A stretch of 64,000 nucleotides of DNA from an uncultured Allomuricauda sp. (lineage in GTDB: Bacteria > Bacteroidota > Bacteroidia > Flavobacteriales > Flavobacteriaceae): the NCBI GenBank assembly GCA_947495325.1, contig CANLYK010000005.1, positions 79,894-143,893 on the forward strand, written 5' to 3'. This document shows, in pieces, positions 19,684-36,376 of this stretch (position 1 is its first letter; each line of letters begins with the position of its first letter). The notes below the pieces were generated by a model. The model was given only the letters and a program-made list of their open reading frames with translations. It did no database searches and was not told where the DNA came from. The translations under genes and the position numbers were made by a program.

Positions 19684-19694
19684 GTAATCCTTTA

Positions 19695-20672
19695 CTATTT
19701 TATTGCGATGGGACGACCAGGTGAACCCGTTGCTCCCTTAAATCTAATAGGAGTAAAAATGAATAGGAAATTATAAGTCTTATCCGAAGCTAATTCTTCA
19801 AGATTAAGGTTTTCCAAATTAAACACACCATTTTGGGCAATTAGAAATTGGTGTACGGGCGCTTCCAAATCTGAATTTGAATTGGGTATAACCTCCGTCC
19901 CAAATTGGTCAGATCCTACCATTGTTACATTTTTGTCCACCACCCATCGAGCAACTTCCAATCCTATGCCCGGTGGATTTTTGTTATACGCTTCTGGGGT
20001 ATTCCAAAGTGTTGCCCATCCAAAGCGAAATAAAATAACATCTCCATTTTCAATATCACTTTCTTTTATCCCTTGTTTTTTAAGAGCACCCTTAACGTCT
20101 TCCACAGTTACCTCATAACTATTGGGAAGAACAGTAAGATTTTTATATCCGGCAATATCAATTAGAAAACCCTTGGTAATTATCGGTTTTATATGCTCCA
20201 CCCCAAGTTTTTTAAGTCCTGCGCTATCATATATTTCTTCTCCTGTAAATCCGTTATAATAGACATCTTTGATTGAACCGTCATCAAATTTCATCTGAGC
20301 GCCAACATGTCCTGGGCCATCAAACTGTGTGCCCACTTGACCAATTTCGGTTATCAAAAGTTCTTCATTAAAGATGAGGTTATTTTCACCAACAGGTCCA
20401 CCACTTGGTGCTCCTGGACTTCTCATTTCATAGATTCTTTTGCCAAAAAGGGGCATTCCAGCTTCGTAAATTTGTCCAAGTTCATATACCTTTCCCGTTT
20501 CTACCAACTTGATAGATTGCACTATTTTTTCAGGAGTAATCCAATTCGATGCTCCGGCTTGATCACCTTCTCCCCAGATTGGGTGTGGCCACCAAGGTCC
20601 TTTTTCTTTGCTCTGGCCCTGAAGCGCTATGAATGGAATCAATAACACCGCAATTGATAGTACTTTTTTCAT
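19695..20672 (-). CDS. Secreted cyclase-family protein (PF04199, kynurenine-formamidase-like fold) with a degenerate metal motif
   Basis: 325 aa with a signal peptide. The family signature region reads QVGTQFDGPGH (20307-20339), where I remember the canonical motif as HxGTHxDxPxH. Confidence 0.65.
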   Translation of the reverse strand: MKKVLSIAVLLIPFIALQGQSKEKGPWWPHPIWGEGDQAGASNWITPEKIVQSIKLVETGKVYELGQIYEAGMPLFGKRIYEMRSPGAPSGGPVGENNLIFNEELLITEIGQVGTQFDGPGHVGAQMKFDDGSIKDVYYNGFTGEEIYDSAGLKKLGVEHIKPIITKGFLIDIAGYKNLTVLPNSYEVTVEDVKGALKKQGIKESDIENGDVILFRFGWATLWNTPEAYNKNPPGIGLEVARWVVDKNVTMVGSDQFGTEVIPNSNSDLEAPVHQFLIAQNGVFNLENLNLEELASDKTYNFLFIFTPIRFKGATGSPGRPIAIK

Positions 20673-20895: not shown

Positions 20896-22467
20896 TTATG
20901 ATAGGAGAATGTAAATTAGAATGGTGAGTGCTACTAAAACTATACCCGAAACATTGACCCATCGCCAGCTTTTATCACTGGTATCTTGTTCAATGGTGTC
21001 TACATAGTCTTTACTCGGATACATTTTGGATACCACTAACATAATAATAAAGTTCAGGACAAACTCTATTCCCCAAAGATGGACAAAATGGATGTTGACT
21101 TCTAAGATAAATGTTGCAAGTATGTAAAATGCAAAACCAAAAAACAATCCGGCCTTGGCTCCTTTTGCATTTACCTGTTTAACAAAGATACCGGCCAGGA
21201 TTACGGAGGAGATTGGAATAAAAAAGATTCCATTCAATTCCTGAAGTAAAAAATAAAGACCATCTGGGGCATAGGCTACTAATGGAGCAACTGCAATAGC
21301 AACAATGGCCAATATTATGGATACCATTTTACCATAATAAACCAGTTTTTCGTCACTAACACTTTTATTGATCAGCTTTTTATAGATGTCATAACAGAAA
21401 ACTGTGGATGCAGAATTTAAAACACTGTTGAAAGTACTAAGAACTGCTCCCAAGATTACTGCAGCGAAAAAACCATATAAATAAGCTGGCAACACCTTTT
21501 TTACCAACATTGGATAAATAAGGTCTGGTGTTTCGTAGTAAGCGTCTTTAAAATAGTAAAAGGCAATCAAACCTGGTAGTACAATTATCAATGGCACCAA
21601 CAGTTTTAAAACACCTGTATAGATTAATCCTTTTTGTGCTTCAACGAGGTTTTTTGCCCCAAAAGCTCTTTGGATAATGGATTGGTTCATTCCCCAGAAA
21701 TAAATTTGGTTGATCATTAGCCCGGTAAACAAAACTGAAAAAGGTAATACCGAATCTGGTGCTCCAATAATGTCAAATTTATCTGGTGCAAAATCATATA
21801 CTGTACTTAAACCATCAAATACATTCCCTTTTCCTATTTGATACAATGCTATGGCCGGAATCAACAACCCACCTAACATAAGACCTATACCATTTAACGT
21901 ATCGGAATAGGCAACTGCTTTTAACCCACCAAAAATTGCATAAAGGGATCCAATCACCCCTATTGCCAAAACGGTATATAAAAGGCCTTCACTTTTGGTA
22001 ATGTTGAACAGTTCAGAAAAATTAAAAACGCTTTCTATGTTTATTGCCCCAGTGTAAAGAACTATTGGAAGTAGGGTAACTACAAAAGAAAGCATCAATA
22101 ATAATGCAACAACGGATCTTGTAACTCCATCAAAACGTTTTTCAAGAAACTCCGGTATGGTGGTTAGACCCATGCGAATAAAACGGGGAAGAAAAAAAAT
22201 GGCAGCTATTACCAGAGCAATTGCTGAAGTAACCTCCCAAGCAATGACTATAATTCCATTTTTATAGGAACTCCCATTCATTCCTATTAAATGTTCCGTT
22301 GAAATATTTGTAAGAATCATGGAACCTGCAATAATAGGCCCCGTAAGACTTTTTCCCGCTAAAAAGTACTCCTTTCCAGTTTTAAAATTATCCTTGCGTA
22401 ATTTATAAACCGTGTAAAAAATCACGAAAAAGGTAAAACCAAAAAAACCGAGGAGTGTCAATAACAT
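20896..22467 (-). CDS. Sodium:solute symporter (SSF/SGLT family). Candidate Na+/myo-inositol transporter by context.
   Basis: 523 aa with about 13-14 TM segments. SSF-like segments are present: YFLAGKSLTGPIIAGSMILTNIS, GGLKAVAYSDTLNG. It lies 15 nt downstream of the MIOX gene. Confidence 0.85.
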   Translation of the reverse strand: MLLTLLGFFGFTFFVIFYTVYKLRKDNFKTGKEYFLAGKSLTGPIIAGSMILTNISTEHLIGMNGSSYKNGIIVIAWEVTSAIALVIAAIFFLPRFIRMGLTTIPEFLEKRFDGVTRSVVALLLMLSFVVTLLPIVLYTGAINIESVFNFSELFNITKSEGLLYTVLAIGVIGSLYAIFGGLKAVAYSDTLNGIGLMLGGLLIPAIALYQIGKGNVFDGLSTVYDFAPDKFDIIGAPDSVLPFSVLFTGLMINQIYFWGMNQSIIQRAFGAKNLVEAQKGLIYTGVLKLLVPLIIVLPGLIAFYYFKDAYYETPDLIYPMLVKKVLPAYLYGFFAAVILGAVLSTFNSVLNSASTVFCYDIYKKLINKSVSDEKLVYYGKMVSIILAIVAIAVAPLVAYAPDGLYFLLQELNGIFFIPISSVILAGIFVKQVNAKGAKAGLFFGFAFYILATFILEVNIHFVHLWGIEFVLNFIIMLVVSKMYPSKDYVDTIEQDTSDKSWRWVNVSGIVLVALTILIYILLS

Positions 22468-22482: not shown

Positions 22483-23361
22483 TTAAAACTTCAATGTTTC
22501 TGGTAAATATTTTGATACTAAATCTTGGTAATAGGGTTTTAACGCCTCTGCATCCGGTGGAGTGGGAGCTTTGGAGTATAAATCGTATGGATTGAATTTT
22601 TTGACCCATTCGAACATTTCATGATCTTTTTCATTCATTAGGTGGGCATAAGCTCCTTCTTTGTGCTGGGCATAAAAAGAATGATAACGAATAATATACA
22701 ATGCCGGGTCCGGTAAATGATTTTTCATAATCTGATACAAATATTCATCATGTCCCCAGCTCATTTTCACATTGTCCAAGCCGCAGTTCGGCTCATATAC
22801 ACCATATTTGGATGTAAACCTTTCATCTGTACTATCGGGATTGTCTTTAAAGAATTCTGGATATACAATTTTGTCCGAAAAACTGCATCCAACAGGAAAA
22901 GTGTCTCCAACAACGGCCCATTGCGGTTCCCCGAACAAGCACAGTACTTTTCCAATATCATGTATGAAACCGGTAAGCACAAACCAATCTGGATGGCCAT
23001 CTTGTTTTATGGCTTCTGAAGTTTGTAGCAAATGCTGTAGTTGATCTAAGTCAATATCCGGGTCACTATCGTCAACAAGGGTATTTAGATATTCAACGGC
23101 ACCCCAAAGTGACATCTCCTTTTTATCAAACTTTAAAAACTCTTTCTCCTTTTCGCAAACAAAGTCATATGTCTGGAAGGTGTGGTTTAAACGGTAGAAT
23201 TCTTTTACCCCTTCGACCCTTTCAGAGTCGACATAGTTTCTGAATTCTTCTTTTTCTTTTGCCGTGGCATCAGGATCAGGATATCTTTCCAATAAACTAT
23301 TTTCCCAATCATCAACTTGTTCCATTGGGTTTTTGTCTGTTGCTTTGGAAGAATTCTTCAT
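22483..23361 (-). CDS. myo-Inositol oxygenase (MIOX, HD-domain di-iron enzyme)
   Basis: 292 aa, collinear with remembered mammalian MIOX. There is an identical block GEPQWAVVGDTFPVGC, plus LVDDSDPDIDL, HDIGKVL, MSWGHDEYLYQ, IIRYHSFY, NPYDLYSK and LKPYYQDL. Confidence 0.92.
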   Translation of the reverse strand: MKNSSKATDKNPMEQVDDWENSLLERYPDPDATAKEKEEFRNYVDSERVEGVKEFYRLNHTFQTYDFVCEKEKEFLKFDKKEMSLWGAVEYLNTLVDDSDPDIDLDQLQHLLQTSEAIKQDGHPDWFVLTGFIHDIGKVLCLFGEPQWAVVGDTFPVGCSFSDKIVYPEFFKDNPDSTDERFTSKYGVYEPNCGLDNVKMSWGHDEYLYQIMKNHLPDPALYIIRYHSFYAQHKEGAYAHLMNEKDHEMFEWVKKFNPYDLYSKAPTPPDAEALKPYYQDLVSKYLPETLKF

Positions 23362-23492: not shown

Positions 23493-26400
23493 TTATATAA
23501 TATCCACTCTTACTTCATCTTTTATAAGTTTACTTGGTGGATATCCAAATTGTCTTTTAAAACATCTACTAAAATATAAAGGATCATTAAAACCAACAAG
23601 CGTAGTTACTTCTGAAACATTATACTTTTTGGTCTTTAAAAGAATTGCTGATTTCTTCAAACGTACGGTACGAATAAATTCGTTGGGGGCTAAATCCGTC
23701 AGTTCTTTAATTTTCCGATATAATTTAGAGGAACTCATACCTAATTCTGCACATAGGAATGCCGTTGTCAGGTCCGTTTCTTTTAGATTTTTATCGATGA
23801 GCTGGGTAACTTTTTGCATAAATTTCTCATCAATTGGAGAATGGGTAAGAAGACTTATTTCACTTTCGGCTTCCACAGAAAATTTGGATTTTAATCCCAT
23901 TCTGGTAGTAATGATATTTACTATCCTGGTTCTTAATAGTGATGGATCAAATGGTTTGACCAAGTAGCCATCAGCTCCAACATTAAATCCTTTTACCTTA
24001 TCTTCATTTTCAGAAAGTGCCGTCAAAAGGATTACGGGTATATGGCTAATAAATTCATCACTTTTGAGCGCGGCACAAAACTCCAATCCATCCATAACGG
24101 GCATCATTACATCTGCAACACATATTATGGGTTTGATCTGCTTGCAGAGGCGAAGACCTTCTTCTCCATTTTCTGCACTATATACCTTGTAATAATCCGA
24201 TAAGTAGTCTATAAGATAATTTCGAAGCTCGGTATTATCTTCTATCACCACAATTTTTTGCTTTAAATTGACAGAATTAAGTATCTTTTTCTTCGGTTTC
24301 ACCACTTGTACTTCTTTGGTGATTTGATATGGCAATAGCTCATTGATTTCAAAATCCTCATAGAATTTGCGACTAATAGGAACTTTTATGGTGAATATGG
24401 TTCCTTCTCCCGACTTACTTTTAAAAGCTATGCTGCCCTTATGCAACTCAACCAAAGACTTTACCAAGGATAGCCCTATTCCTGAACCAGTCGTACTTTC
24501 TTTACTGTTTCTAGCTTGATAGAATCTGGAAAAAATATTCTTTTGACTGGCTTCGGGAATACCTATTCCATCATCACTTACCTCAATGATCAAATGTTCG
24601 GCCATATCATCACTCAACCCTAAAAACAAATCTACGTTGCCATGATTATTGGAAAACTTTAAGGCATTGGACAACAAATTGTATAGGATTTTGTCCAGCT
24701 TGTCTTTATCAATCCAACCTGAAATAGTTTCGTTTTCACAGTTGAAATTAAAAGAAATATTCTTGTTTTTGGCGAGTTCCTTAAAGGATTCAAAAATACT
24801 TTTTGATTGTTCCAAAATATCAATTTTTGACACCTTCAATTGTAGTTCGCCCGTTTGTGCTTTTCTAAAATCCAGTATTTGAGTAACCAGGTTTAATAGT
24901 CTATTGGCATTATGATGGATCAATTTGGCTCTTGTTTCCTGATACTCGTTCTGAGTTTTACCTGCTTGTTTCAACAGGTCTTTTGCTGGACCTAAAATTA
25001 AGGTCAAAGGTGTTCTTAATTCATGTGAGATGTTGGTGAAAAACCTAAACTTCTCATTGTTCAGTTTTTCATTTCGTTCTTGTTTCAGTTTTTCAAGTAG
25101 CAAAGCTTGCTTTAGCTTCATCCTATTTTTTAATTCTTTTTTACCAAGAAATATGAGAAGGGCTATTATCAATATAAACAGGAAAAATGCTTTGTAAGTA
25201 AACCAAAAAGGTGGCAAAACCCTAATGTTGAAACTTGCTGTCTCACCCCAATACCCATTACTGTTACTGGAGCGGACCTTGAAAGTATAGTTGTCTGGAT
25301 ATAAATTGGTGTATTGTACGGTTCTAGAACTATTATTGGCCGAAATCCAATTTTCATCAAAACCTTCCAGCATATATTCAAATTGGTTCAATCGTTCATT
25401 TGAATAGGAGGGATTTGAGAACTGGATTGAAAAATTACGGTTGTTATATTTGAGTGTGACCTCTCTTTGAAAATTTAAATCTTTGTCCAAAACAGTTTGT
25501 CCATTGATTTCCATTGCTGGGTATACCGTTTTATTTTGGACTTTAAATTCAGAGATAAAAGGTTTTGGAGACCATTGATTTTCTTTTATGGTGTAGGGTG
25601 AAAAATGGATAACACCGTTTTTACCTCCTAGAAATATCTTGGAACCTGCTATGTGATAAAAACCACTTGAGCTGAAAACATCTAACCTATTTCCACTTTT
25701 AACATGATAAACATTAAGGGCCCCGCTGCTAGGCTTTAATCGACCAATACTGTTATTCATGTTCAGCCAAAGGTTTCCATTGGTATCCATTACCATATCG
25801 GTAATCCATTTTCCTATAAGTTCTTTGGGTTCTTTTATGGCGACAAAATTGTTCAATTCTGGTTTGAAGGTGCTTAGGCCCATTCGAGTAGCAGCCCAAA
25901 CTTTATTATCGGTATCTATTAGTACATCACTGACATTGTTGTGTGGCAAAGATTCTTTATCCTCAGTATTGGATTGGTAGATTGTTGTACTCTTGGTAGA
26001 AATATCATACGTGACCACACCATCTTCCGTTGCAAACCATAATTTTTTGTTCTCCTTGTCAAAAGCAATTTTATTAATAGAACTTCCTTCTGCTATTTTG
26101 CTTGTATCGGGAATAGGCCTTAGGCTTTTCTTGTTCAATAGTATAGCTCCCTCTCCAAATGAGCCAATGGCCATTCTATTTTGGTCTATACTTTTAAAGG
26201 TCAAAACAGGCGAAGACTTAAAACCAACATCTACGATATCGGTTTCCTTGGTCACATAATTATATACCAATACCTCACCGTTCCATAGACCGCAATAAAA
26301 GATTCTTCCATCTGTGGAATAGATACTAGCTATATCTGAAGTTTTGTTGTAAAGTGGGGTGATTAAGTCATCATCAAAAAGAAACAAGCCATTATGCCGT

Positions 26401-27572
26401 GTTGCAACGATAAGTTTTTCATCAAAAGTTTTGGAAAACCCTCTAATTCCGGGTGCTTGATTGTCAATATGTTCTGATATACCCTTGTTTAACTTAAATT
26501 GATTTTCATAAGGATCGTATTTATCCAAACCGTCCTCGGTTCCAATCCATAAAACATCTGAAGTATCGAAGTAAAGAGAAGATATCAGGTTGTCCACAAG
26601 TGAGGTATCATCCGAAAGAATCGTATAATGCCATTCAAACTTTCCTTTTGCAATATCTTCCAATTGATCACAGACCAACAACCCCCCTAAAGTCCCCAGC
26701 CAATAACGCCCTTCCGGAGAACGTGCGATTGATACAAAATATGGACCAACTTGATCTCTAGTATAGCTATCATCGATATAGAGGTTTTCAAAAACATCAT
26801 TTTCCTTATCCAATTTGTACAAACCACTTCGGGTGCCTACGAAAATATCTGACTTATGATCTTCGTAGATAAAGTATATATAGGGATTTTTCTCATTGGA
26901 AAAAGGAATAGATAAGGAATACGTTATTGTTTGATCAATTTTCCCATAATTATCAAAGCTGAGTTTCGCAATGGATCTTTTTTCATAGCTACCTATCCAA
27001 ATATTGCCCTTTTTATCTTCAAAAATTTCTTTTATGTACTCAAAACCTTCAAGAGGTATTTTTTTGAATTTTTTAGATTCGGGATAGAACCTAAATAGTC
27101 CTTTGGTTTTTGTACCGACCCAAACGCTTTTCATTCTGTCTACCAGAACCGAACGAATTTCATGGTCCGTGATGCTGTTGGGATTGTTTTTTTCTGGTAA
27201 GAAGGTTTCAAAATTATGGGTCTCGATATCAAGTTTGGTTAATCCATTTCTTGTACCTATCCAAAGATTATTGGAATCACTGTCAAACTCAAGAGCTGTA
27301 ATGTCATCATCGTTTAAGCTATTTTCATTGGAAAAAGAACTCAGGTACGATTTAAATTCATAACCATCAAAGCGATTAAGGCCTGAAAAGGTTCCCAGCC
27401 AAAGAAAACCGTTGTTGTCCTGGACAATATGACGGACCGAGTTGTGGGACAACCCACTATTATCATTATAATGCTCAAACTTTATGTTCTGTGCATATAA
27501 AAAAGTTATGCCACTGATAAACAGTACAAGGCATAGTTGTTTTTTTATTGCAAAACATGATTTGAATAACAT
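23493..27572 (-). CDS. Hybrid two-component system regulator (HTCS): periplasmic beta-propeller/Y_Y_Y sensor, HisKA, HATPase, REC, AraC HTH
   Basis: 1359 aa with repeated WIGT/WLGT propeller motifs, a TM segment FFLFILIIALLIFL, H-box FFTNISHELRTPL and G-box GSGIGLSLV. The REC domain reads VVIEDN...DVMMPVMDG...KPF. The C-terminal HTH reads GFNDPLYFSRCFKRQFGYPPS. Confidence 0.93.
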   Translation of the reverse strand: MLFKSCFAIKKQLCLVLFISGITFLYAQNIKFEHYNDNSGLSHNSVRHIVQDNNGFLWLGTFSGLNRFDGYEFKSYLSSFSNENSLNDDDITALEFDSDSNNLWIGTRNGLTKLDIETHNFETFLPEKNNPNSITDHEIRSVLVDRMKSVWVGTKTKGLFRFYPESKKFKKIPLEGFEYIKEIFEDKKGNIWIGSYEKRSIAKLSFDNYGKIDQTITYSLSIPFSNEKNPYIYFIYEDHKSDIFVGTRSGLYKLDKENDVFENLYIDDSYTRDQVGPYFVSIARSPEGRYWLGTLGGLLVCDQLEDIAKGKFEWHYTILSDDTSLVDNLISSLYFDTSDVLWIGTEDGLDKYDPYENQFKLNKGISEHIDNQAPGIRGFSKTFDEKLIVATRHNGLFLFDDDLITPLYNKTSDIASIYSTDGRIFYCGLWNGEVLVYNYVTKETDIVDVGFKSSPVLTFKSIDQNRMAIGSFGEGAILLNKKSLRPIPDTSKIAEGSSINKIAFDKENKKLWFATEDGVVTYDISTKSTTIYQSNTEDKESLPHNNVSDVLIDTDNKVWAATRMGLSTFKPELNNFVAIKEPKELIGKWITDMVMDTNGNLWLNMNNSIGRLKPSSGALNVYHVKSGNRLDVFSSSGFYHIAGSKIFLGGKNGVIHFSPYTIKENQWSPKPFISEFKVQNKTVYPAMEINGQTVLDKDLNFQREVTLKYNNRNFSIQFSNPSYSNERLNQFEYMLEGFDENWISANNSSRTVQYTNLYPDNYTFKVRSSNSNGYWGETASFNIRVLPPFWFTYKAFFLFILIIALLIFLGKKELKNRMKLKQALLLEKLKQERNEKLNNEKFRFFTNISHELRTPLTLILGPAKDLLKQAGKTQNEYQETRAKLIHHNANRLLNLVTQILDFRKAQTGELQLKVSKIDILEQSKSIFESFKELAKNKNISFNFNCENETISGWIDKDKLDKILYNLLSNALKFSNNHGNVDLFLGLSDDMAEHLIIEVSDDGIGIPEASQKNIFSRFYQARNSKESTTGSGIGLSLVKSLVELHKGSIAFKSKSGEGTIFTIKVPISRKFYEDFEINELLPYQITKEVQVVKPKKKILNSVNLKQKIVVIEDNTELRNYLIDYLSDYYKVYSAENGEEGLRLCKQIKPIICVADVMMPVMDGLEFCAALKSDEFISHIPVILLTALSENEDKVKGFNVGADGYLVKPFDPSLLRTRIVNIITTRMGLKSKFSVEAESEISLLTHSPIDEKFMQKVTQLIDKNLKETDLTTAFLCAELGMSSSKLYRKIKELTDLAPNEFIRTVRLKKSAILLKTKKYNVSEVTTLVGFNDPLYFSRCFKRQFGYPPSKLIKDEVRVDII

Positions 27573-27617: not shown

Positions 27618-29444
27618 TTACAATCGCTCTATTGTATTAGTTTTTAGATTAATCATAAAATTTCCGGATGGATGCCCATGCATCGCCTTATAAAAAATAT
27701 TGCCCCAGAGCGACATTTCCAAATTTTCACAATTCATCAAGTGCTTGCATACCAATTCATATTGTGCCAATCTTTTGCTACCAATCTTTCCTTTTGCCAA
27801 TTCCCCTGCGTTTCTCAATTTGTAGAAATCATATACCATATCTAAACCGGTCCATTTATTTAGAGCCATATATTCAGGTTTATTTTTACTGAGTTTGCCA
27901 ATTGAGGGGATTGACTTGGTGTTCTTTAGTTCCAATTTCAATAGATCATTTCCAGTCGATTTTTCCAATTTTGTGATAAGTTCAGTTGGCCAATCGTTTT
28001 TTAAAAAGCGTAATCGCACAAGTTCTTTTAAATGCTGTTCAGTAAAATCGATATAGGTTTTAGATGCTAATATTTCTTTATCCCAAATCGTATTTGTTGC
28101 CGATTTCTTTAGATGTTGATGTTCTTGCTCATACAACAGGAAAAGGGAACTGAAATTTGAAACGGAATCCACGACAACAGTCTCTATTTCCATTTCTTCT
28201 TTTGAATTGATGGTAAGTATTTTGAAAGCGGGTATATAGCCGGCCAAAGAGGGTGTTTGAATATTGTAGAGTGTTTTTCCGCTTTTAGCTTTGTGGATTC
28301 CAGTATCATTCATGTGCATATGACCTCCAAAATGAAGCTGTATTCCTAAATCTGCAAATAATTCTGCAATGGTATCTTTTGGAACTCTATGCATCTGCAT
28401 CTTGTCCTTTCCAAAAAGTTGCTCCATTTCTTTGGAAGCTCCATCATAAAATTCAACCATTGGGTAATGGCTAAAAGCTATCAAAATCTTTTCCCTCTTT
28501 TCAGCTTCTGAGGAAACTTTTCGTATCCAAGGTAGTAGATGTTTTTTATGGGTCAATATGTTATTATACCCAATACTGGCACTGGAGGTTTCGTTGATTT
28601 TAGAAGAATTGCCACTAATATATATGTTCGCATCTATACCCAATAACCAAATGTCTTTTATAGGTTCCACTAAATAGCTGGCATCTGGTATGGAAATCTG
28701 TTTTTCATTATCCGAGAATTTTCTTTTTTCCACTGCTGAAATTGAAACAGCTTCAGTTAATGTATAATTATCATAATCGTACAATGAAAAGGGTGTTTCC
28801 CAATACAAAAATTCTTTTTTCGGAAAAAACCCAAAGGATGAGAGTTCATTTAAAATCTCTAAATATCCCCATTGTTTAATTTCGGACGAAATTATAGGAT
28901 GCAGTTTATGATTACTGCTTATAAGAGAGCTATCGCTTAAAATGGCTAGCTCATTGCCTTGAGCGCCTAGAAAATTAGTTTTTCCAGCTTCTCTGCTATA
29001 AGGCCTCACAGGATCATGGTTACCAGTGGTCAGAAAAAACTGGATACCATGGTTTACTGTGTAAGCATCAAGTATTTTTTTTAGTGCCTTAATATTTATG
29101 GGTTGCCCGTCATCACTAAAATCACCAGGTAAAACAACAAGAGTTATGTTTCTTGAAACAATTTCATCCAAAGCTGTTTTAAAAGCGAAATAATTCTCGT
29201 TAAATAATCGCGTTGATCGCAGTTGCGACCCCATTGTTCTTATGGTATTGTAACTGCCGGTAGCTGGATTTTTGATTCCCTTATAGTTGGCATCGATAAA
29301 ATTTGCATGAATATCCTGTAGGTGTACATCGGCCAAAAAGGCAATCTTGACAGGTTCTGAAATCGTTTTTTGTTCGCTTTTACATGAGCCAATAACTACA
29401 AAACAGAGAATCTGAATAAAATAAAAGTAAAATCTATTTTTCAT
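27618..29444 (-). CDS. Calcineurin-like metallophosphoesterase lipoprotein with a roughly 200-aa helical C-terminal extension
   Basis: 608 aa with lipobox VIGSC. The ordered metallophosphoesterase motifs are present: LADVHL (DxH), PGDFSDDG (GDxxD), TGNHD (GNHD), FSHYP (H), GGHMHM (GHxH). Confidence 0.85.
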   Translation of the reverse strand: MKNRFYFYFIQILCFVVIGSCKSEQKTISEPVKIAFLADVHLQDIHANFIDANYKGIKNPATGSYNTIRTMGSQLRSTRLFNENYFAFKTALDEIVSRNITLVVLPGDFSDDGQPINIKALKKILDAYTVNHGIQFFLTTGNHDPVRPYSREAGKTNFLGAQGNELAILSDSSLISSNHKLHPIISSEIKQWGYLEILNELSSFGFFPKKEFLYWETPFSLYDYDNYTLTEAVSISAVEKRKFSDNEKQISIPDASYLVEPIKDIWLLGIDANIYISGNSSKINETSSASIGYNNILTHKKHLLPWIRKVSSEAEKREKILIAFSHYPMVEFYDGASKEMEQLFGKDKMQMHRVPKDTIAELFADLGIQLHFGGHMHMNDTGIHKAKSGKTLYNIQTPSLAGYIPAFKILTINSKEEMEIETVVVDSVSNFSSLFLLYEQEHQHLKKSATNTIWDKEILASKTYIDFTEQHLKELVRLRFLKNDWPTELITKLEKSTGNDLLKLELKNTKSIPSIGKLSKNKPEYMALNKWTGLDMVYDFYKLRNAGELAKGKIGSKRLAQYELVCKHLMNCENLEMSLWGNIFYKAMHGHPSGNFMINLKTNTIERL

Positions 29445-29456
29445 TAAGGCTCTCTT

Positions 29457-30530
29457 TTAATTGTTCATTCTTTCATAACTACCGTCCTTAAAAATAATTT
29501 GAAACTGTGATGGAAACAATTGCGAGGGAACATAATAATCAGTGGATATGACGTGTGCCCCTGAAGCTTTTGCTTTTTCAAACCTGTTATAGTCCATGGT
29601 CCGGGCTTCTTTGGTACCTGCATCGGCGCGGGTCCTAACCATATAGCCTTTGGTTACCAATTCTTTTATATAATCGAAATCTTTAACAGGGTCGTTAATA
29701 ATTCTAAAAGCAGCTTCTGGGTTGCCTTCCGGGCTGTTTACAAAAAGCATTCGATTTTTTAATGATGGATGGTTTTTAATATAGCGGTCGATTTTTTCCT
29801 TTTTCTCGTCCAAAACAAAAAGGAATCGACCTTGTACTGAATCTAGTTCTGGCCAACCTTTTTCTAAAATGGCATTTTCCAAGCTTGGAAAATCTCCTCG
29901 TACCATATCTGGTGTAATCAATTGCTCTAATGGGAACACACTTTTTATTTCTATATCAATGCTATCAAGAGCGGCAGTTGTGAAGGGTAATGGTTTTTTG
30001 GTTTGCGGAACTTGGCTATCCTTTGCATTTATCAATATTATGATCGGAGTGTGGTTTTGATTCTTATCTGACCATTTTTTTAGCTCTTTCAATCCGTTCT
30101 TAAAAAGTAGTTGGTGGCTTCTAAAGTCAATATCCTGAACATGGAACATTTTTAAACCAGGTTGTTCCAATATTTTCTTTTCATCAAAGGGCAAAGGCAC
30201 CACGCCTCTTTTTTTTACAATTTCTATTCCGCCGGGATTGGCAAATCGTCCACCAAGAGGGTCATGAAAAATATCAAGTTCTAAATTTCTAAGGCCTAAA
30301 TCCAATTGCTCCGTTAGTGAAGGATGTCCATATTGCAATGATTCTGCCGTGCGGGAATCATGTACAAAAAGATATTCCCATAAGGGTTGCTCTATTGGTA
30401 TTTTATAACTGTTATGGCTTCCAATGACCTGAATCTGATTTAAAGCCTCTTTTTGCATTTGGCCCTGACAATTTACCATGACAAGTACACAAAAAGAAAG
30501 TAGCATATTTAGATAATTCTTTTTCATCAC
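29457..30530 (-). CDS. PLC-like phosphodiesterase, resembling the bacterial Ca2+-dependent PI-PLC-like family (PF16670), exported
   Basis: 357 aa with a signal peptide. VIGSHNSYK near the N-terminus is typical of the catalytic His region of PI-PLC X-domain TIM barrels. LELDIFHD follows at the expected spacing. The assignment is from memory and was not searched. Confidence 0.6.
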   Translation of the reverse strand: MMKKNYLNMLLSFCVLVMVNCQGQMQKEALNQIQVIGSHNSYKIPIEQPLWEYLFVHDSRTAESLQYGHPSLTEQLDLGLRNLELDIFHDPLGGRFANPGGIEIVKKRGVVPLPFDEKKILEQPGLKMFHVQDIDFRSHQLLFKNGLKELKKWSDKNQNHTPIIILINAKDSQVPQTKKPLPFTTAALDSIDIEIKSVFPLEQLITPDMVRGDFPSLENAILEKGWPELDSVQGRFLFVLDEKKEKIDRYIKNHPSLKNRMLFVNSPEGNPEAAFRIINDPVKDFDYIKELVTKGYMVRTRADAGTKEARTMDYNRFEKAKASGAHVISTDYYVPSQLFPSQFQIIFKDGSYERMNN

Positions 30531-30558: not shown

Positions 30559-31848
30559 TTATTTTATAAAATCTACATTCGTCAGTTTCACTACAATTGG
30601 ATTGGGCCAGATTTTATCGTTATATAATCTATGAGCTTTACTTATTGATATTTCCAAAGAATTTTCATGTTGCGTAAATGTAGAAATAGGATTGTTTTCG
30701 GGCCAATATTCTACTACTAAATCATTTTGCCCCAATACCGATATAGTAGTCTTCTCTGTAGCTTTCAGGTATTTTATTAAAAAATTCCTGCGGAATCCTT
30801 TAAACCAATCTTTTTGACCGGTAATAAAAACATACACAGCATTTTCTTTTTCATTTTGGGTAAACCATAAATCGCCATCTCTTATTTTGTGGGGTGACGG
30901 GCGAATACTTTTTATGGCTTCATCATTAACAAACATCCAAAGTGCTACTTCCCTTAAACGTTCTTCTTGTTCAATGGGTAATTCACCATTTGGTTTTGGT
31001 CCTACGTTTAAAAGGAAATTACCTCCTTTTGCGCGAATTTCTATTAGTTTATTGATGAGGTCTGTTCCTGGTTTATATGTTTCGTTAGTTGGTTTATATT
31101 GCCACTGTGTGCCCATGGTCATACAGGTTTCCCAAGGCCCTTGCATAGCTGCGTTAGGAATTTTTTGTTCCGGTGTGTTCATTTCACCACGAGTTACAAT
31201 TACATCGGGGTATTTGGAATGCACATATTGCACTATTGGTCCATTTTCAAAAGAATCAAAAAACACTACGTCTATTTTCCCATAATTTGTAAATAACTCA
31301 TCCAGTTGCTTTAAATCATACGCTAAAAGCTCTGGGTTATCAGTTACCTGACTCATATGTCGTTTCCTGGAAATTAAGGTTCCTTGTTCATGAAGAAAAT
31401 GAAAATCTTCAGGGGAAAAATAGATACCCACTTTAATGCCAAATTTCCTTAAAGAATTGAATAACATTGCTGTTATATCTTTTCCATAAGGGGTGTTCAT
31501 TATGTTAAAATCTGTTGTCTTGGTATCCCACATACAAAAGCCATTATGGTGTTTAGTGGTAAAAACAACATATTCTGCTCCAGCTAATTTGAACAATCTG
31601 GCCCATTCGTCTGAATCAAATTTGTTTGGATAGAACGTTTTGGGAAGTTCATTTATATACTTATCCAGATAATCATCTGAAGCTCCTACCATAGAATGGC
31701 TTATAACACTGCCCAACTGGGAATCCATGCTCCAGTGAACAAATATTCCAAAGCCCATATCCATAAAATCTTGTTCGAGCGCTGGTTTGTTTTTAAGCTG
31801 TCCTGTGAGCGTAAAACCTACTAGGCATAAAAGTGGAAAAAGCCGCAT
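30559..31848 (-). CDS. GH29 alpha-L-fucosidase (second copy, divergent from 8422-9864)
   Basis: 429 aa with a signal peptide and motifs FGIFVHWS, YVVFTTKHHNGFCMWDT and GGNFLLNVGP. Confidence 0.88.
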   Translation of the reverse strand: MRLFPLLCLVGFTLTGQLKNKPALEQDFMDMGFGIFVHWSMDSQLGSVISHSMVGASDDYLDKYINELPKTFYPNKFDSDEWARLFKLAGAEYVVFTTKHHNGFCMWDTKTTDFNIMNTPYGKDITAMLFNSLRKFGIKVGIYFSPEDFHFLHEQGTLISRKRHMSQVTDNPELLAYDLKQLDELFTNYGKIDVVFFDSFENGPIVQYVHSKYPDVIVTRGEMNTPEQKIPNAAMQGPWETCMTMGTQWQYKPTNETYKPGTDLINKLIEIRAKGGNFLLNVGPKPNGELPIEQEERLREVALWMFVNDEAIKSIRPSPHKIRDGDLWFTQNEKENAVYVFITGQKDWFKGFRRNFLIKYLKATEKTTISVLGQNDLVVEYWPENNPISTFTQHENSLEISISKAHRLYNDKIWPNPIVVKLTNVDFIK

Positions 31849-31908: not shown

Positions 31909-34230
31909 TTATTCAATAGGTTTTGAAGCAACCATTTTAAGCTCAAGTGTACCACCTTTAATAAGGTCGTTATGGAATATGTGGTAATCATTCAATTGTT
32001 CACTATTCCATTGAATTTTATCAATGTACATATTCTCGGAACTATTATTTATAGTTTTGATCTCTAGCTTTTCTCCTGGATAATAGTCGTTGTTCAATTG
32101 TATGGTTATTTTATCAAAAATAGGACTACCTATTTCATATTTAGGGTTTTCCATAACTCCACCATTCATTTGAAACATACCTATTTTCATTAATACTGCG
32201 AGACTACCCATAAGTCCTTGGTCTTCATCACCATTATATCCGGTAGAAGGGGATAAACCACTAAAAACGGATTGTACAACTTTACGCGACCAGTATTGTG
32301 AAAGATCAGGTCTGCCTAATTTAGTGAAAATTTGGGCTGTCTGCATGGAAGGCTGATTGCCATAATTAATAGGGATGCGACTATATTCTGGATGTATTTC
32401 ACGATCATGTGAACTGCCTGCTGTAAATTGTTGCCCTTCTGAGTTTTTAAATTGTGTATTCAGTTTTTCGATTGCTTTTTCAGTTCCTCCCATCAAATAA
32501 GCTAAGCCTTTTAGATCATGGGGAACAAACCAAGTGGATTGGGCACCATTGGATTCATTGAACCCATTTTCATAGAGGTAAGGGTCAAAATCCTTTTTCC
32601 AAACACCATCTATGTTTTTAGGACGCATCCAGCCTGTAGAGGAATCATATACATTTTTATAATTCTGGGACCTTTCCATGAAATGGGTATAATCTTCTTC
32701 ATGATCCAATTTTTTTGCAAGTTGGGCCAATACAAAATCCTGATAGGCATATTCCAGGGTAAGGCTGGCACCATCCTGGTGTATTCCAAATTTACCTTCT
32801 GGTATAGGGTAAGGTACATAACCGTTCTTCAAATAGTGAGCAAGGCCACCTCCTAAGTTGGTTTCATGCTCATAGCCTGCTTTTTCCATAATACCACCAA
32901 GCATATGGTTCTTTTTTAAGGCTGAATAAATAGTATCTAGGTTTTCTGTTATCAACCCTTGTTGAATGGCACTTACAATAAAAGGAGTACTTGATGCACC
33001 TGTCATTACATAGGTGTAATTGCCGCCAGAAGGGCCTCTAGGTATAAGGCCGCCATCTTTACCATATTGTAAGAGAGAATAAACAAATTCTTTTTTAATT
33101 TCTGGATATGCCAATCCCCAAAGCGTATTTATGGTCCATTGTGCTCCCCAAAAAGCATCAGAATTATAATGGTTAAAGACAGGGGTGCCATCATCCTTTA
33201 AAGGTAACTGGCCTATTCTAAAGCTTTCTTGGGTATTGTCTGGGTAAGCTCCGTTTATATCACTTATTATACGGCGCCCTTGCAATGCATGCCAAAGGTC
33301 GGTGTAGAACCGTCTCCTATCTTTGTATGTTGCTCCTTCAACAGTAATTCTACTCAACAAATTGTTCCACTCTTCTTTGGATTCGTCTACTACTTTATCA
33401 AAATCCCAATGTGGTAGCTCTGTATCTAGATTGTTCTTTGCATTTTCAATAGAGGTATATGAAATTCCTATCTTCATTAAGAGGGGAATGCTGGATTTCT
33501 CCAAATGTAGCATGTAGTTCCCTGTTTGCTCATCAGAATCGACCTCATTAACAGGGGTATTTAATTCAACATGGAAGAAAATGGTATTGGGCTTTGGTTT
33601 TCGTCTGGTAGGTGCAACTGTGAATTTACCATTCAATTGGGTTGCGTTTATTTGCGTAATAACCCCATCTAACGTATTACAAGGACCCAATTCTCCATTA
33701 AGATTAAAAAGAATAGCATTCTGTGTATTCTCTGGGAAGGTATACTTGTGTATACCAGTACGTTTTGTACTACTGAGCTCTACTTTAGTGTTATAACGAT
33801 TTAACTGTAAAGAATGATATCCTGGAGAAACTTTTTCATCGTCATGACTGAACTTGGAATAAAAATCTGTAAAAATTTTTGCTTTGTTCTTTTTATTTAA
33901 TGTCAAAGGCATTACCGAAAGCCCAGATAATTGCCAACCATGAACATGACTAAATCCTTTTATAGTATCTATCTCATATCTATAACCACTGCCCCAGGTA
34001 CCTGTAAGTTTAGTATCCGGACTTAGATTTACCATTCCAAATGGTCTGCTTGCTGATGTAAATAGAAACCACCTTGAGTTTTCCGTATCCAATTGTGGAT
34101 AGACCATATCTACTGGCGCTATGCTGGATTCCAGATTAGGTTGAGATACTTTATATGCGGGGCTATTACATGCGTTCCACAAGAGTAGTGAAAGTGTGAA
34201 CGATATGATAAGTGCCTTTTTTAAAACCAT
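31909..34230 (-). CDS. Divergent GH92-family glycoside hydrolase (alpha-mannosidase-like), lipoprotein
   Basis: 773 aa with lipobox WNAC. GH92-like landmarks are RPFGMVNLSPDT, GYRY..DTIKGFSHVH, NESNGAQSTWFVPHD, YGNQPSMQ (canonical NEPS) and GDEDQGLMGS (canonical DDxG.MS). Confidence 0.8.
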   Translation of the reverse strand: MVLKKALIISFTLSLLLWNACNSPAYKVSQPNLESSIAPVDMVYPQLDTENSRWFLFTSASRPFGMVNLSPDTKLTGTWGSGYRYEIDTIKGFSHVHGWQLSGLSVMPLTLNKKNKAKIFTDFYSKFSHDDEKVSPGYHSLQLNRYNTKVELSSTKRTGIHKYTFPENTQNAILFNLNGELGPCNTLDGVITQINATQLNGKFTVAPTRRKPKPNTIFFHVELNTPVNEVDSDEQTGNYMLHLEKSSIPLLMKIGISYTSIENAKNNLDTELPHWDFDKVVDESKEEWNNLLSRITVEGATYKDRRRFYTDLWHALQGRRIISDINGAYPDNTQESFRIGQLPLKDDGTPVFNHYNSDAFWGAQWTINTLWGLAYPEIKKEFVYSLLQYGKDGGLIPRGPSGGNYTYVMTGASSTPFIVSAIQQGLITENLDTIYSALKKNHMLGGIMEKAGYEHETNLGGGLAHYLKNGYVPYPIPEGKFGIHQDGASLTLEYAYQDFVLAQLAKKLDHEEDYTHFMERSQNYKNVYDSSTGWMRPKNIDGVWKKDFDPYLYENGFNESNGAQSTWFVPHDLKGLAYLMGGTEKAIEKLNTQFKNSEGQQFTAGSSHDREIHPEYSRIPINYGNQPSMQTAQIFTKLGRPDLSQYWSRKVVQSVFSGLSPSTGYNGDEDQGLMGSLAVLMKIGMFQMNGGVMENPKYEIGSPIFDKITIQLNNDYYPGEKLEIKTINNSSENMYIDKIQWNSEQLNDYHIFHNDLIKGGTLELKMVASKPIE

Positions 34231-34234: not shown

Positions 34235-36298
34235 TTAAATTTTAGTGATTTGGGTTACATTTCGTTCTACTTGATTCAGCATTTCTTGGGTAGGAAAACC
34301 ATTATTGGGTCTTCTGATAGCAGGGTCGTACCATTTCTCCCATTTTGGGTTTTTGTCGCCTTCCAAACGATTCTGATATATTTTGGCCAAATTCTTTTTT
34401 GCATCCTCAAGAATAACAAGAGCTTCCTTTAAGTAGGTAACATTACTGGAAGTCTCATATTTTCTTTTCAGTAGTGACATTTGGTGAAGGTTACTTTCAA
34501 ATAGCATCAAATCGGAATACAATAATGTGGGTAAATACACATATGAATAATAAAACCCATCTTCTTTTGATAATTTCAATCCTTTTTTTGCCTCGGTCAA
34601 GGCACTGTCTATATGCTTTTTGGTGAAGCGCACATGCTCAAGGTCATTTTCTACCCTTTCAAACTCATAGGGCACAGGCGGTTTTCCGGGTCTTTCTATA
34701 GGTGAATTTGACAGATAGGCTATGGCTTCACGTATTTCCCATAGATGTTGTACATAACCAATTCTACCAGAAGATTGCGCTTTGTTCAATAACTTCATTG
34801 ATTTTACGGCATGTACTGCAGTGTTCTTATCAAAATATCGATGCGACCACTCTTCATAATATTGCTCTGCGGAAAAAGTATCTGGATTTTGGCAAACATC
34901 ACTATAGGCTTCTATATTGAATATAAAAGGTCTAAAGTTTTGACCATTGACCATACAGTATTCATAAGCTCCATAGTCATTGAATATTTTTTTCATTTTG
35001 GCCTCCACTTTTTCCGGATACGGATTGTGGACAGTATGATTTAACCAAAAACCAGCATGCATGTAGGTGCCAAACGTGTAGTCATCTGTAGTTTGTGGCA
35101 AATGTTCAAAATCGCCAAAACCATCATCTGCCCATGCAATGATCCAATCTTTTGGTGGCCTGAAGCCATCATTATACATTTGCATGGCATCAGAGTAACA
35201 AATTAGTGCCTTGGTAGCATCATTTTTATAGGAGTCGACCAAATCATCAAAAACTGTAAACACTTCATTGAATACTTCTATTTTGTCTTCGCCACAGCTA
35301 CTTTTGTATTCCCAATCCCAAACTTGATTTCGAGGTCTTAGAATAAAAATATCTGTTTTTGCTAATGGAGTCTCTTCAAAATAGTAGCGCCAAGCCTTGA
35401 TCCAATCTTCTTTATAATCAGCCCAACAACTTGCTTTCTCTTCATCCATGGGATGTATTTGGTAACCCAAAGAAAAATCGACTTGAATTTTCATACCCTT
35501 GCTATGGGCATAGTCCATCATTTTCTCTAGGTAGGGAATATCAATTTGATAGTCTGGATGAAGCTCTTGGTATTCTGGACGTAGATAAAATTCCGGTCTC
35601 CCCAACATATCGAAAAACTGAATTGCATTGTATCTGAGCTTGACCAAGGAATTGATCATTTCGGTGTAGCTTTCCCAATCATATTCCAATAATTTTCCCC
35701 TGTAGCTGGCCAATTCATCCACATCATTTTCAAAATAACATAAAATGGGTACTTTGGGTGGGGCAATCGTTTTACTTTCAAAGGCAAATAAGTCTATTTC
35801 ATCAATCTTATTAGGTATCTTTCCAGTCCAATATGCCAATGGATCTATACCCAAAACTTCTTCGGCATAATCGTAAACTGCATATTGCATACCTTGAACA
35901 TTGGAGCCAGCCAATATGATAGCATTTTGTCCACTTTCCAAATTGGACTTTGACCAAATGCCTCCTCTTGGACCTGGATTTTCCTTAGATAGACCTAACA
36001 ATCCTTCCTTAACCAGATTGCCAATAACTTGATTTGATTCTGTAGTGCCCAGAACGAAGATTGTACCGTTTTTTGGAAATTGACTACCTTCAGAAATAAC
36101 CAGAATCGTCTTGTCCGTTACTTTTTGAAGATCAACTTTGAAATCGTTTATTGTATTTATTTCGATTTCATTAGCAGTTTTCCCAAGGACCAAATAAACC
36201 TTATTTGATTCGTCATTGGAACATGCTATGTTCAAAAAGAAAAAAAGGACAGCCACTGTAGCATAAATGCTACTGCTTATGGTTTTATGTATCCCCAT
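34235..36298 (-). CDS. GH115-like glycoside hydrolase (alpha-glucuronidase fold) lacking the usual C-terminal beta-sandwich, lipoprotein
   Basis: 687 aa with lipobox NIAC. The N-terminal domain pattern is IFVLGT..SNQVIGNLVKEG...IILAGSNVQGMQYAVYDYAEEVLGIDPLAYW. After it come FENDVDE, LVKLRYNAIQF and IIAWADDGFGDFEHLP, which parallel GH115 segments as I remember them. DUF4838 is an alternative assignment. Confidence 0.5.
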   Translation of the reverse strand: MGIHKTISSSIYATVAVLFFFLNIACSNDESNKVYLVLGKTANEIEINTINDFKVDLQKVTDKTILVISEGSQFPKNGTIFVLGTTESNQVIGNLVKEGLLGLSKENPGPRGGIWSKSNLESGQNAIILAGSNVQGMQYAVYDYAEEVLGIDPLAYWTGKIPNKIDEIDLFAFESKTIAPPKVPILCYFENDVDELASYRGKLLEYDWESYTEMINSLVKLRYNAIQFFDMLGRPEFYLRPEYQELHPDYQIDIPYLEKMMDYAHSKGMKIQVDFSLGYQIHPMDEEKASCWADYKEDWIKAWRYYFEETPLAKTDIFILRPRNQVWDWEYKSSCGEDKIEVFNEVFTVFDDLVDSYKNDATKALICYSDAMQMYNDGFRPPKDWIIAWADDGFGDFEHLPQTTDDYTFGTYMHAGFWLNHTVHNPYPEKVEAKMKKIFNDYGAYEYCMVNGQNFRPFIFNIEAYSDVCQNPDTFSAEQYYEEWSHRYFDKNTAVHAVKSMKLLNKAQSSGRIGYVQHLWEIREAIAYLSNSPIERPGKPPVPYEFERVENDLEHVRFTKKHIDSALTEAKKGLKLSKEDGFYYSYVYLPTLLYSDLMLFESNLHQMSLLKRKYETSSNVTYLKEALVILEDAKKNLAKIYQNRLEGDKNPKWEKWYDPAIRRPNNGFPTQEMLNQVERNVTQITKI

Positions 36299-36346: not shown

Positions 36347-36376
36347 ATATAGGCAGGCAAATGGGCCTGCCTATAT
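36347..36376 (-). terminator. Strong intergenic stem-loop between susD and the downstream hydrolase genes (attenuator or RNA-stabilising hairpin)
   Basis: ATATAGGCAGGC-aaatgg-GCCTGCCTATAT is a perfect 12-bp stem with a 6-nt loop in the 120-nt susD/GH115-like spacer. On the minus strand only a modest U-rich tail (UAUUUGAGG) follows. Confidence 0.5.

Follow-up and report, generated by a model that had tools for sequence, protein, structure and literature searches.

A flavobacterial locus coupling two predicted phosphoesterases with inositol oxygenase points to the head groups of glycosylated inositol-phosphate lipids

In Flavobacterium johnsoniae, the locus pus1, which encodes the SusCD-like transporter PusCD1, the phosphatidylinositol-specific phospholipase C (PI-PLC) PI-PLC1 (Fjoh_4172) and the calcineurin-like protein Fjoh_4173, is required for growth on phosphatidylinositol (PtdIns or PI) and glycerophosphoinositol (GroPI) as phosphorus source (bioRxiv 10.64898/2026.09.03.749221, Sept 2026). 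Fjoh_4173 was stated to be structurally homologous to a fungal phospholipase C (PLC) acting on glycosyl inositol phosphoryl ceramides (GIPC), and the authors speculated on GIPC as a substrate, which could not be tested there (bioRxiv 10.64898/2026.09.03.749221). The fungal enzyme, GIPC-PLC1 of Botrytis cinerea (BCIN07g04350), is a secreted 'sphingomyelinase' that cleaves plant GIPC to phytoceramide and an inositol-phosphate glycan (PMC11496612). This 2024 paper and the preprint on phosphatidylinositol scavenging are the closest published work to the locus described here. It lies in a stretch of 64,000 nucleotides ('the window') from an uncultured Allomuricauda sp. (Flavobacteriaceae; assembly GCA_947495325.1, contig CANLYK010000005.1, positions 79,894 to 143,893 of the forward strand) and joins a PI-PLC gene (hereafter PLC) and a calcineurin-like metallophosphoesterase (MPE) gene to a polysaccharide utilization locus (PUL). 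Both enzyme families are already known, as is the pairing of PLC and MPE beside a SusCD-like transporter, described in the Pus1 preprint. On balance, the pair probably forms the phosphoester-cleaving module of a PUL-type locus whose substrate is the polar head group of glycosylated inositol-phosphate lipids, most likely of a GIPC-type sphingolipid.

On the minus strand the genes follow one another in the order SusC, SusD, GH115-like protein, GH92, GH29, PLC, MPE, hybrid two-component sensor/regulator (HTCS), myo-inositol oxygenase (MIOX), sodium/solute symporter (SSF), cyclase-family protein and tripartite ATP-independent periplasmic (TRAP) transporter. The genes from SusC to the symporter are:

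38083-41127, minus strand: SusC (TIGR04056, 820 bits), forming with SusD the outer-membrane import pair
36419-38068, minus strand: SusD (SusD Pfam domains), with a lipoprotein-type cysteine
34235-36298, minus strand: distant GH115 relative, candidate alpha-glucuronidase, predicted lipoprotein (PF15979, E 8e-20; BtGH115A 5by3, 1e-12)
31909-34230, minus strand: GH92 alpha-mannosidase, predicted lipoprotein (profile match)
30559-31848, minus strand: GH29 alpha-L-fucosidase (profile match)
29457-30530, minus strand: Ca2+-type PI-PLC (PF16670, PI-PLC-C1) of 357 aa, predicted lipoprotein (Cys21), assigned by Pfam, fold and conserved residues
27618-29444, minus strand: calcineurin-like MPE of 608 aa, helical in its C-terminal part (about residues 431-588), with a fold like Lmo2642 and acid sphingomyelinase (ASM); predicted lipoprotein (Cys21)
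23493-27572, minus strand: HTCS (profile match)
22483-23361, minus strand: MIOX, cytoplasmic, inositol to D-glucuronate (PF05153, E 2e-111)
20896-22467, minus strand: Na+/solute symporter (SSF, YidK-type), presumed inositol importer (profile match)

The open reading frames of the two exported, non-CAZyme hydrolases lie exactly where an earlier note on this DNA had placed them, between the GH29 and HTCS genes. The spacers, which that note had put at 12-45 nt, measured 28 nt (GH29 to PLC), 12 nt (PLC to MPE) and 45 nt (MPE to HTCS). These short spacers and the conserved gene order suggest that the string is co-transcribed; scans for terminators and promoters remained at chance level and are thus silent on operon structure. 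The sole notable stem-loop of the gene string, in a scan that as a whole was at chance, is a GC-containing hairpin (36354-36373, minus strand) where 120 nt separate susD from the GH115-like gene. A lipoprotein-type cysteine follows the signal peptide in the PLC, the MPE, the GH92 enzyme, the GH115-like protein and SusD.

With adjacent susC and susD, CAZymes and a dedicated sensor, the locus is by its gene content a PUL. It has architecture and regulator type in common with classical Bacteroidota PULs (SusCD, CAZymes and HTCS), but unlike these it has two phosphoesterases, coupled to MIOX and a symporter. With Pus1, whose targets are inositol phospholipids, it shares the SusCD-like transporter beside a PI-PLC and a calcineurin-like phosphoesterase in a member of the Bacteroidota. 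Pus1, however, serves phosphorus acquisition under phosphate-starvation control via an extracytoplasmic function (ECF) sigma factor, is poor in CAZymes and encodes enzymes with SPI signal peptides, and MIOX is unmentioned in the main text of the preprint. The window locus instead has an HTCS, GH29, GH92 and GH115-like genes, MIOX, the symporter and predicted lipoprotein enzymes.

The 357-aa protein matched PF16670 with an E-value of 3.3e-125 (417.9 bits, cutoff 29.9) over profile positions 3-328 of 329 (326/329). The motif VIGSHNSYK, in which the earlier note had seen the catalytic-histidine context of PI-PLC, occupies residues 35-43. The open reading frame opens with GTG at 30530 and ATG immediately next; the ATG at 30527 is the likelier start. 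The closest Foldseek match of the AlphaFold2 model (pLDDT 83) was the Ca2+-dependent PI-PLC 5fyr of Pseudomonas (1e-13, TM 0.64 on target), followed by 3h4w of Streptomyces antibioticus (2e-11), rat PLC-delta1 (5e-7) and then glycerophosphodiester phosphodiesterase (GDPD) enzymes, so that profile and structure searches both led to a phosphodiesterase family. Residues H39, N40, E84 and D86 were invariant across 37 close homologues and 13 diverse ones; we take them to match the catalytic histidine and the Ca2+ ligands of SaPLC1 and PLC-delta1. The modelled fold is the PI-PLC X-type TIM barrel of solved PF16670 members. Family, fold and motifs together indicate a full-length Ca2+-type PI-PLC, for which Ca2+-dependent hydrolysis is predicted. 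Family, barrel and the H-N...E-x-D residues are common to SaPLC1 (3h4w/3h4x) and the enzyme of Pseudomonas sp. 62186 (5fyo/5fyp/5fyr), but structural alignments give only 14-16% identity to these proteins, which are secreted and have been studied on PI only, whereas the window PLC is a predicted lipoprotein encoded in a PUL. SaPLC1, the founding enzyme of PF16670, uses the inositol 6-OH, forming a 1,6-cyclic intermediate, and would hence tolerate O-2-substituted inositol; we treat this as a lead and not as evidence.

Several genera (Polaribacter, Gramella, Mariniflexile, Formosa and Algibacter) have PLC fusion proteins that begin with an esterase domain of the alpha/beta-hydrolase type (proteins P0128, P0144, P0146, P0163, P0179, P0182, P0193, P0197 and P0235), and in locus L005 (8344-9975) a BD-FAE+SASA esterase gene stands immediately upstream of the PLC gene. 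These PLC-linked esterases hint at a substrate carrying an acyl or acetyl ester.

The neighbouring 608-aa protein matched PF00149 (E 6e-13, 50.1 bits, cutoff 21.5). It has the five calcineurin-like metal-binding motifs (DxH, GD, GNH(D/E), H and GHxH) and the helical tail that the earlier note had described: the motif residues D39/H41, D108, N142/H143, H326 and H375/H377 were invariant in 39 homologues, and residues 431-588 are helical in the AlphaFold2 model (pLDDT 87). Foldseek ranked Lmo2642 of Listeria first (2xmo; 2e-14, TM 0.68 on target, 13% identity), followed by SMPDL3B, SMPDL3A and human ASM with E-values of 6e-8 to 3e-7; the analogy with ASM drawn in the earlier note appears to hold at the level of the fold. 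Purple acid phosphatases and phytases were among the weaker fold matches. A sequence search of the PDB returned Lmo2642 (2e-6) and Mre11 only. Lmo2642, the best match in both sequence and fold, lies in an unrelated gene context; it is a cyclic-nucleotide phosphodiesterase whose reported substrates are nucleotides. The MPE has no saposin-like N-terminal region, and its sequence did not place it in the ASM type. The likeness to GIPC-PLC1 lies in the fold neighbours ASM and SMPDL3A/B and in the tie that the Pus1 preprint makes between a flavobacterial MPE homologue and the fungal enzyme; unlike the window MPE, the Botrytis enzyme is eukaryotic, has an acid optimum, is associated with virulence and has no downstream catabolic pathway. 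NCBIfam gave no specific model for the PLC, the MPE, MIOX or the GH115-like protein.

What sets the locus apart is the link to inositol oxidation. The window MIOX aligned in full length with mouse MIOX (2huo; 2.7e-87), with the HDxGK, WGHDEY and RYHSFY blocks kept, and is by sequence a bona fide member of its family. Its F. johnsoniae orthologue converts inositol to glucuronate in heterologous expression (PMC10294642), and a MIOX-containing locus, PUL39, affects plant colonisation, its substrate being 'not clear' (bioRxiv 10.64898/2025.12.01.691665). The window also contains a cluster for uronate use:

46261-47097, plus strand: D-mannonate oxidoreductase UxuB (profile match)
47107-48282, plus strand: UxuA (profile match)
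48286-49704, plus strand: UxaC (profile match)
49701-50669, plus strand: TRAP subunit DctP (profile match)
50672-51163, plus strand: 163-aa open reading frame between DctP and DctM (from the list of open reading frames)
51165-52469, plus strand: TRAP subunit DctM (profile match)

UxaC, UxuA and UxuB would consume the product of MIOX as well as released glucuronic acid (GlcA). Judged from the encoded proteins, the MIOX route from inositol via glucuronate to KDG is present in the window with MIOX, UxaC, UxuB and UxuA, and the predicted logic of the cluster is complete from inositol phosphodiester via inositol and glucuronate to central metabolism. In other genomes, too, UxuA, UxaC or a short-chain dehydrogenase/reductase (SDR) co-locates with MIOX.

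Four synteny scans, each with one genome per species, were centred on the PLC, on MIOX, on a wider set of PLC homologues and on the MPE. The PLC-centred scan recovered the order SusCD, GH115-like, GH92, (GH29), PLC, MPE, HTCS, MIOX, SSF in Maribacter, Cellulophaga, Flagellimonas/Muricauda, Polaribacter, Christiangramia, Algibacter, Mariniflexile, Saonia and Croceivirga; in one metagenome-assembled genome (MAG) with this order the cluster proteins except SusC are 77-97% identical to those of the window. PLC, MPE, HTCS and MIOX, in part with the symporter, also follow one another in Flavobacterium, Marinifilum, Ancylomarina and Prolixibacteraceae, and more than 40 species have the PLC and MPE genes lodged between glycosidase genes on one side and the HTCS gene on the other. 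Cultured strains with the locus include Cellulophaga baltica DSM 24729, Maribacter stanieri DSM 19891, Algibacter miyuki CECT 8300 and the Flavobacterium strains Root186 and Root420. Among 47 non-identical loci of the PUL type that contain a PLC, all but one have the MPE next to it (46/47), and these synteny counts rule out a chance adjacency of the two genes. The HTCS, about 60-65% identical between genera, always comes after the MPE, and MIOX follows it in 29 of the 38 PUL-type loci with room for MIOX.

The scans centred on MIOX and on the MPE show which part of the locus is most constant. Among 79 MIOX loci, 72 have the MIOX-SSF pair and 27 have MPE-HTCS immediately upstream. MPE-HTCS-MIOX occurs in 70 of 80 loci of the MPE-centred scan, which is skewed to soil and freshwater Flavobacterium; here the commonest form consists of SusCD, two GH92 genes, MPE, HTCS and MIOX, and in 66 of the 80 loci no PLC was found within 10 kb. 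In an MPE tree these PLC-less loci form one derived Flavobacterium sub-clade, and the PLC is added in most of the sampled marine and sediment relatives. MPE-HTCS-MIOX thus appears to be the conserved core, with the PLC as a frequent accessory. In Flavobacterium fluvii (L127), which has MPE-HTCS-MIOX and no PLC gene, a PLC-like fragment of about 50 aa (1463-1621, about 60% identical) lies some 2 kb upstream of the MPE and may be the remnant of a lost PLC.

The wider PLC scan separated two locus types. 'Pus-type' loci, found in Algoriphagus, Zobellia, Pricia and others and typed by the genes they contain rather than by alignment with the Fjoh sequences, combine a PhoA-GDPD fusion and a PLC with a conserved SusCD-like pair and, in some cases, an MPE; CAZymes, HTCS and MIOX are absent. 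The window locus is of the 'PUL-type': it has an HTCS and three glycosidase genes and is without PhoA, in contrast to a Pus-like locus such as L026. In neighbour-joining trees of the PLC and of the MPE, the sequences of the two types fall into separate contiguous blocks, and the window PLC and MPE therefore belong to a distinct orthologous group. No match of the window SusC or SusD to a SusD of the Pus-type loci L022, L026, L028 and L029 qualified, and identity to the SusC of these loci was only about 30%.

These comparisons bear on another explanation, namely that the pair scavenges phosphorus from plain PI or GroPI as Pus1 does and merely adjoins an unrelated glycan PUL, for instance for an algal fucose/mannose/glucuronate polysaccharide, with no single glyco-inositol-phosphate substrate. 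The requirement of F. johnsoniae for Pus1 on PtdIns and GroPI, the occurrence of loci with Pus1 content in the genera just named, and the wealth of fucose catabolism genes in the window, with a sulfatase, speak for it. We nevertheless regard it as improbable: the window PLC and MPE group apart from their Pus-type counterparts, an HTCS takes the place of the ECF sigma/anti-sigma pair, PhoA is absent, and the position of PLC and MPE between glycosidases and HTCS in so many species, often with an inserted GH115 gene (39/61) and with MIOX-SSF downstream, better fits carbon use.

The glycosidases of the locus family narrow the substrate further. In 39 of 61 PUL-type loci, PLC and MPE flank a true GH115 alpha-glucuronidase gene (Pfam 4e-132, with GH115_C; for example L011:11031-14036); 24 of the 61 have a GH29, and 23 a GH115-like gene next to SusD. 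GH92 is the most frequent glycosidase, and GH3, a second GH29, an acetyl-esterase, GH125, GH28, GH2 and a GH89 alpha-N-acetylglucosaminidase (L009:5152-7389) occur as variable accessories. Plant GIPC heads comprise Man-GlcA-Ino-P in Arabidopsis and GlcN(Ac)-GlcA-inositol phosphorylceramide (IPC) in tobacco and tomato, extended by hexoses and pentoses (PMC11496612; PMC8553973). The enzymes of the locus family can be mapped onto such heads: GH92 and GH125 alpha-mannosidases, GH89 alpha-N-acetylglucosaminidase (GlcNAcase), GH115 or GH115-like alpha-glucuronidase, the phosphoesterases, the importer and MIOX. Diverse head groups in plants, algae and fungi would also lead one to expect a constant inositol-phosphate module with variable glycosidases. 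Loci carrying GH115 and GH89 appear tuned to plant-type heads with GlcA and N-acetylglucosamine (GlcNAc), and a pair of GH92 genes in the absence of GH115 would be apt for the mannose-rich inositol-phosphoceramides of fungi. The minimal set of the window (GH29, GH92 and GH115-like) suggests a head group decorated with fucose (Fuc), mannose (Man) and GlcA. The likeliest substrate would be (Fuc/Man/GlcNAc...)-GlcA-Ins-1-P-ceramide from plant, algal or fungal membranes.

The same gene content can be read as directed at the glycan of glycosylphosphatidylinositol (GPI) anchors (Man3-GlcN-Ins-P-lipid), which the PI-PLC would release, GH92 trim and the MPE relieve of ethanolamine-phosphate in the manner of PGAP5. 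Bacterial PI-PLCs are the classical GPI releasers and PGAP5 is a metallophosphoesterase; the prevalence of GH92 and the GH125 of some loci would be in keeping with this. GPI cores, however, are without GlcA, Fuc and GlcNAc, which leaves the GH115 next to the PLC (39/61), the GH29 and the GH89 without a target, and PGAP5-like proteins did not rank high among the fold matches of the MPE. Moreover, the inositol 6-OH, which is glycosylated in GPI, is the working group of SaPLC1, a point that we count only provisionally against GPI. Altogether a GPI substrate seems very improbable to us.

Phosphomannan and teichoic-like links were, besides lipid-P-inositol, the phosphodiesters that the earlier note had considered. 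Lipid-P-inositol is strongly supported by MIOX, the symporter, the glucuronate pathway and the PLC-MPE-HTCS-MIOX synteny; nothing in the analysis pointed to the other two. A sugar-phosphate-sugar polymer of this kind, such as yeast phosphomannan, would be opened by cleavage of the diester and then of the monoester, and GH92 would fit it, as Bacteroides PULs for yeast mannan pair GH92 with phosphatases. Yet PF16670 is a family acting on inositol phosphodiesters, MIOX and the symporter would be left without a role although MPE-HTCS-MIOX is the conserved core, and mannan enzymes of the GH76, GH99 and GH38 types were not seen in the window or the scanned neighbours. We give this reading hardly any credence. 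The observations of the earlier note were thus confirmed, and its interpretation is partly supported. Phytate or a free inositol-phosphate, considered on account of the weak purple-acid-phytase fold matches, is an unlikely substrate, as it leaves the PI-PLC and the glycosidases unexplained.

An independent link to ceramide lipids comes from marine gammaproteobacteria. In three loci a neutral/alkaline ceramidase gene (PF04734, 5e-155) lies next to a PLC homologue: directly upstream and on the same strand in HTCC2143 and an Oceanicoccus MAG, and divergently adjacent in another gammaproteobacterial MAG. The three genes, one per locus, are:

L031:7821-9890: ceramidase gene beside the PLC homologue
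L034:7745-9760: ceramidase gene beside the PLC homologue
L038:7711-9651: ceramidase gene beside the PLC homologue

All three loci are without an MPE, and L031 and L034 have a secretory lipase homologue. The link to ceramidase would also be compatible with GPI anchors, since ceramide-based GPIs exist.

Taken as a system for the GIPC-type head group, the locus would work as follows. The lipoprotein phosphodiesterases would free the inositol-phosphate glycan from the lipid, and SusCD would import the glycan. Fucose, mannose and glucuronic acid would then be trimmed by GH29, GH92 and the GH115-like enzyme, and the phosphate removed. Free myo-inositol would be taken up via the SSF symporter and converted to D-glucuronate by MIOX, and the glucuronate would enter catabolism through UxaC, UxuB and UxuA of the same window. 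The HTCS would sense a conserved core fragment. Gene content, synteny over many genera, family and fold of both enzymes and their intact catalytic motifs are observed; substrate, localisation of the enzymes and order of the steps are what we infer from them.

As to the division of labour between the two phosphoesterases, our analysis tentatively favours the ASM-like MPE as the core enzyme, which would hydrolyse the ceramide-O-P bond of ring-glycosylated inositol lipids like the Botrytis GIPC-PLC and perhaps also remove phosphate, with the PI-PLC as an auxiliary entry point for diesters of the PI, GroPI or IPC type. Somewhat less readily, we consider the order of the earlier note, with the inositol-phosphate glycan produced by the PLC, or by a foreign PLC, and its phosphate removed or opened by the MPE; the remaining probability falls to something else. 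The role of the MPE as a lipid-cleaving diesterase is backed by the GIPC-PLC reports, the ASM/SMPDL3 fold matches and the many loci without a PLC; because 66 of 80 MPE-centred loci are of this kind, the MPE would act independently of an adjacent PLC. Classical PI-PLCs attack via the inositol 2-OH, a position that carries GlcA in GIPC; with the 2-OH so occupied, a metal-hydroxide diesterase would be a natural solution. A monoesterase or bifunctional role of the MPE is nevertheless still alive, since MIOX needs free inositol and the loci contain no other phosphatase. The two models would be reconciled if the MPE were bifunctional or if a periplasmic phosphatase were encoded elsewhere.

The strict form of sequential cleavage keeps the same locus substrate and assigns lipid-P-inositol cleavage, perhaps with a cyclic product, to the PI-PLC, after which the MPE as cyclic phosphodiesterase or monoesterase would yield the free inositol glycan. 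The demand of MIOX for free inositol in a locus with no other phosphatase fits this sequence, and so do the top-ranking structural match to Lmo2642 with its activity on cyclic nucleotides and the purple acid phosphatases and phytases further down the list. PhoA-GDPD is constant and the MPE optional (26/44) in Pus-type loci, and PhoA is absent and the MPE constant in PUL-type ones; the ceramidase beside an MPE-less PLC in gammaproteobacteria suggests that a PLC alone can release ceramide. On the other side, where no PLC lies within 10 kb (66/80), the MPE either cuts the diester itself or uses heads released by others, and its nearest characterised relatives are diesterases (ASM/SMPDL3, Lmo2642 and, through the preprint on the F. 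johnsoniae homologue, the Botrytis GIPC-PLC). We judge the strict two-step order to be rather unlikely.

Several points weigh against a GIPC-type substrate as such. A classical phosphomonoesterase is not in the locus, nor is a ceramidase or lipase in the window. The structural similarity of the MPE model to ASM and SMPDL3 is modest (TM 0.36-0.51 on target), Lmo2642 ranking above them, and an ASM-specific C-terminal model was not detected, the Pfam scan at E <= 0.01 giving PF00149 only. The GH115-like gene of the window is only remotely related to GH115 (PF15979 8e-20; BtGH115A 1e-12). Fucose is not typical of Arabidopsis GIPC, and searching the literature on where GIPC might occur in the sea or in algae yielded no useful lead. 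In principle, the glycosidases could also act on a separate glycan that is sensed by the same HTCS.

Divergent from susC lies a further module that may touch on inositol:

41478-45460, plus strand: lipoprotein with two 3-keto-disaccharide-hydrolase-like domains and two Tat-exported GFO/IDH/MocA oxidoreductases

The oxidoreductases gave weak matches to glycoside 3-dehydrogenase and inositol 2-dehydrogenase models, and homologues of the module adjoin MIOX-SSF in at least eight other loci (L054, L066, L078, L083, L093, L096, L107 and L111). The module may provide an oxidative route for the glycosyl-inositol bond or for other inositol isomers. The symporter gene is followed (16974-20672, minus strand) by one for a cyclase-family protein that has a signal peptide (PF04199) and by those of a DctPQM TRAP transporter; L001/L053, the closest MAG, has the same genes in this place. 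Their possible functions include the uptake of uronates or aldonates and a lactonase-like step.

The remainder of the window is largely devoted to sugars. At 446-11973 (plus strand), genes for a sulfatase, a 3-keto-disaccharide-hydrolase-like protein, ThuA and an AraC regulator precede a set for complete non-phosphorylative L-fucose catabolism, consisting of an enolase-superfamily dehydratase, an SDR, an FAA-hydrolase, an amidohydrolase_2, an L-fucose dehydrogenase (NF052481, 400 bits) and an MFS permease; another GH29 is also present in this region. By this gene content, fucose is clearly a major sugar for the organism. An FMN-dependent dehydrogenase of the L-lactate-dehydrogenase type and a pyruvate carboxylase, encoded between the fucose cluster and the TRAP genes (12308-16943, plus strand), are consistent with the handling of lactate and pyruvate from fucose catabolism. 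A second, separate PUL begins at 53637 (plus strand) with an HTCS (53637-57752) and a SusC (57996-61052), followed by a 519-aa open reading frame (61054-62613, plus strand) that is possibly the SusD partner.

Searches of a library of 8.3 million papers and preprints returned no description of a locus type coupled to CAZymes, HTCS and MIOX, and those combining flavobacterial PULs with MIOX, or PULs with GIPC, came back empty. To our knowledge, no bacterial pathway for GIPC turnover is known. GIPCs are major sphingolipids also in fungi. In plants, they reportedly account for up to 40% of the outer leaflet of the plasma membrane (bioRxiv 10.64898/2026.09.03.749221). The locus family is spread over marine, freshwater and rhizosphere Bacteroidota. 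There is a fair chance that it represents the first bacterial system for GIPC catabolism, combining an ASM-like lipoprotein phosphodiesterase, with or without a PI-PLC, with tailored glycosidases and a MIOX route instead of the iol pathway. If so, it would add a new substrate class to SusCD-type systems and explain what the many 'inositol oxygenase family' genes of Bacteroidota do in the cell. The GH115, GH115-like, GH89, GH92, MPE and PLC proteins would be candidate enzymes for GIPC glycan analysis, and the locus family would be a sign that carbon and phosphorus flow from eukaryotic membranes in oceans and soils.

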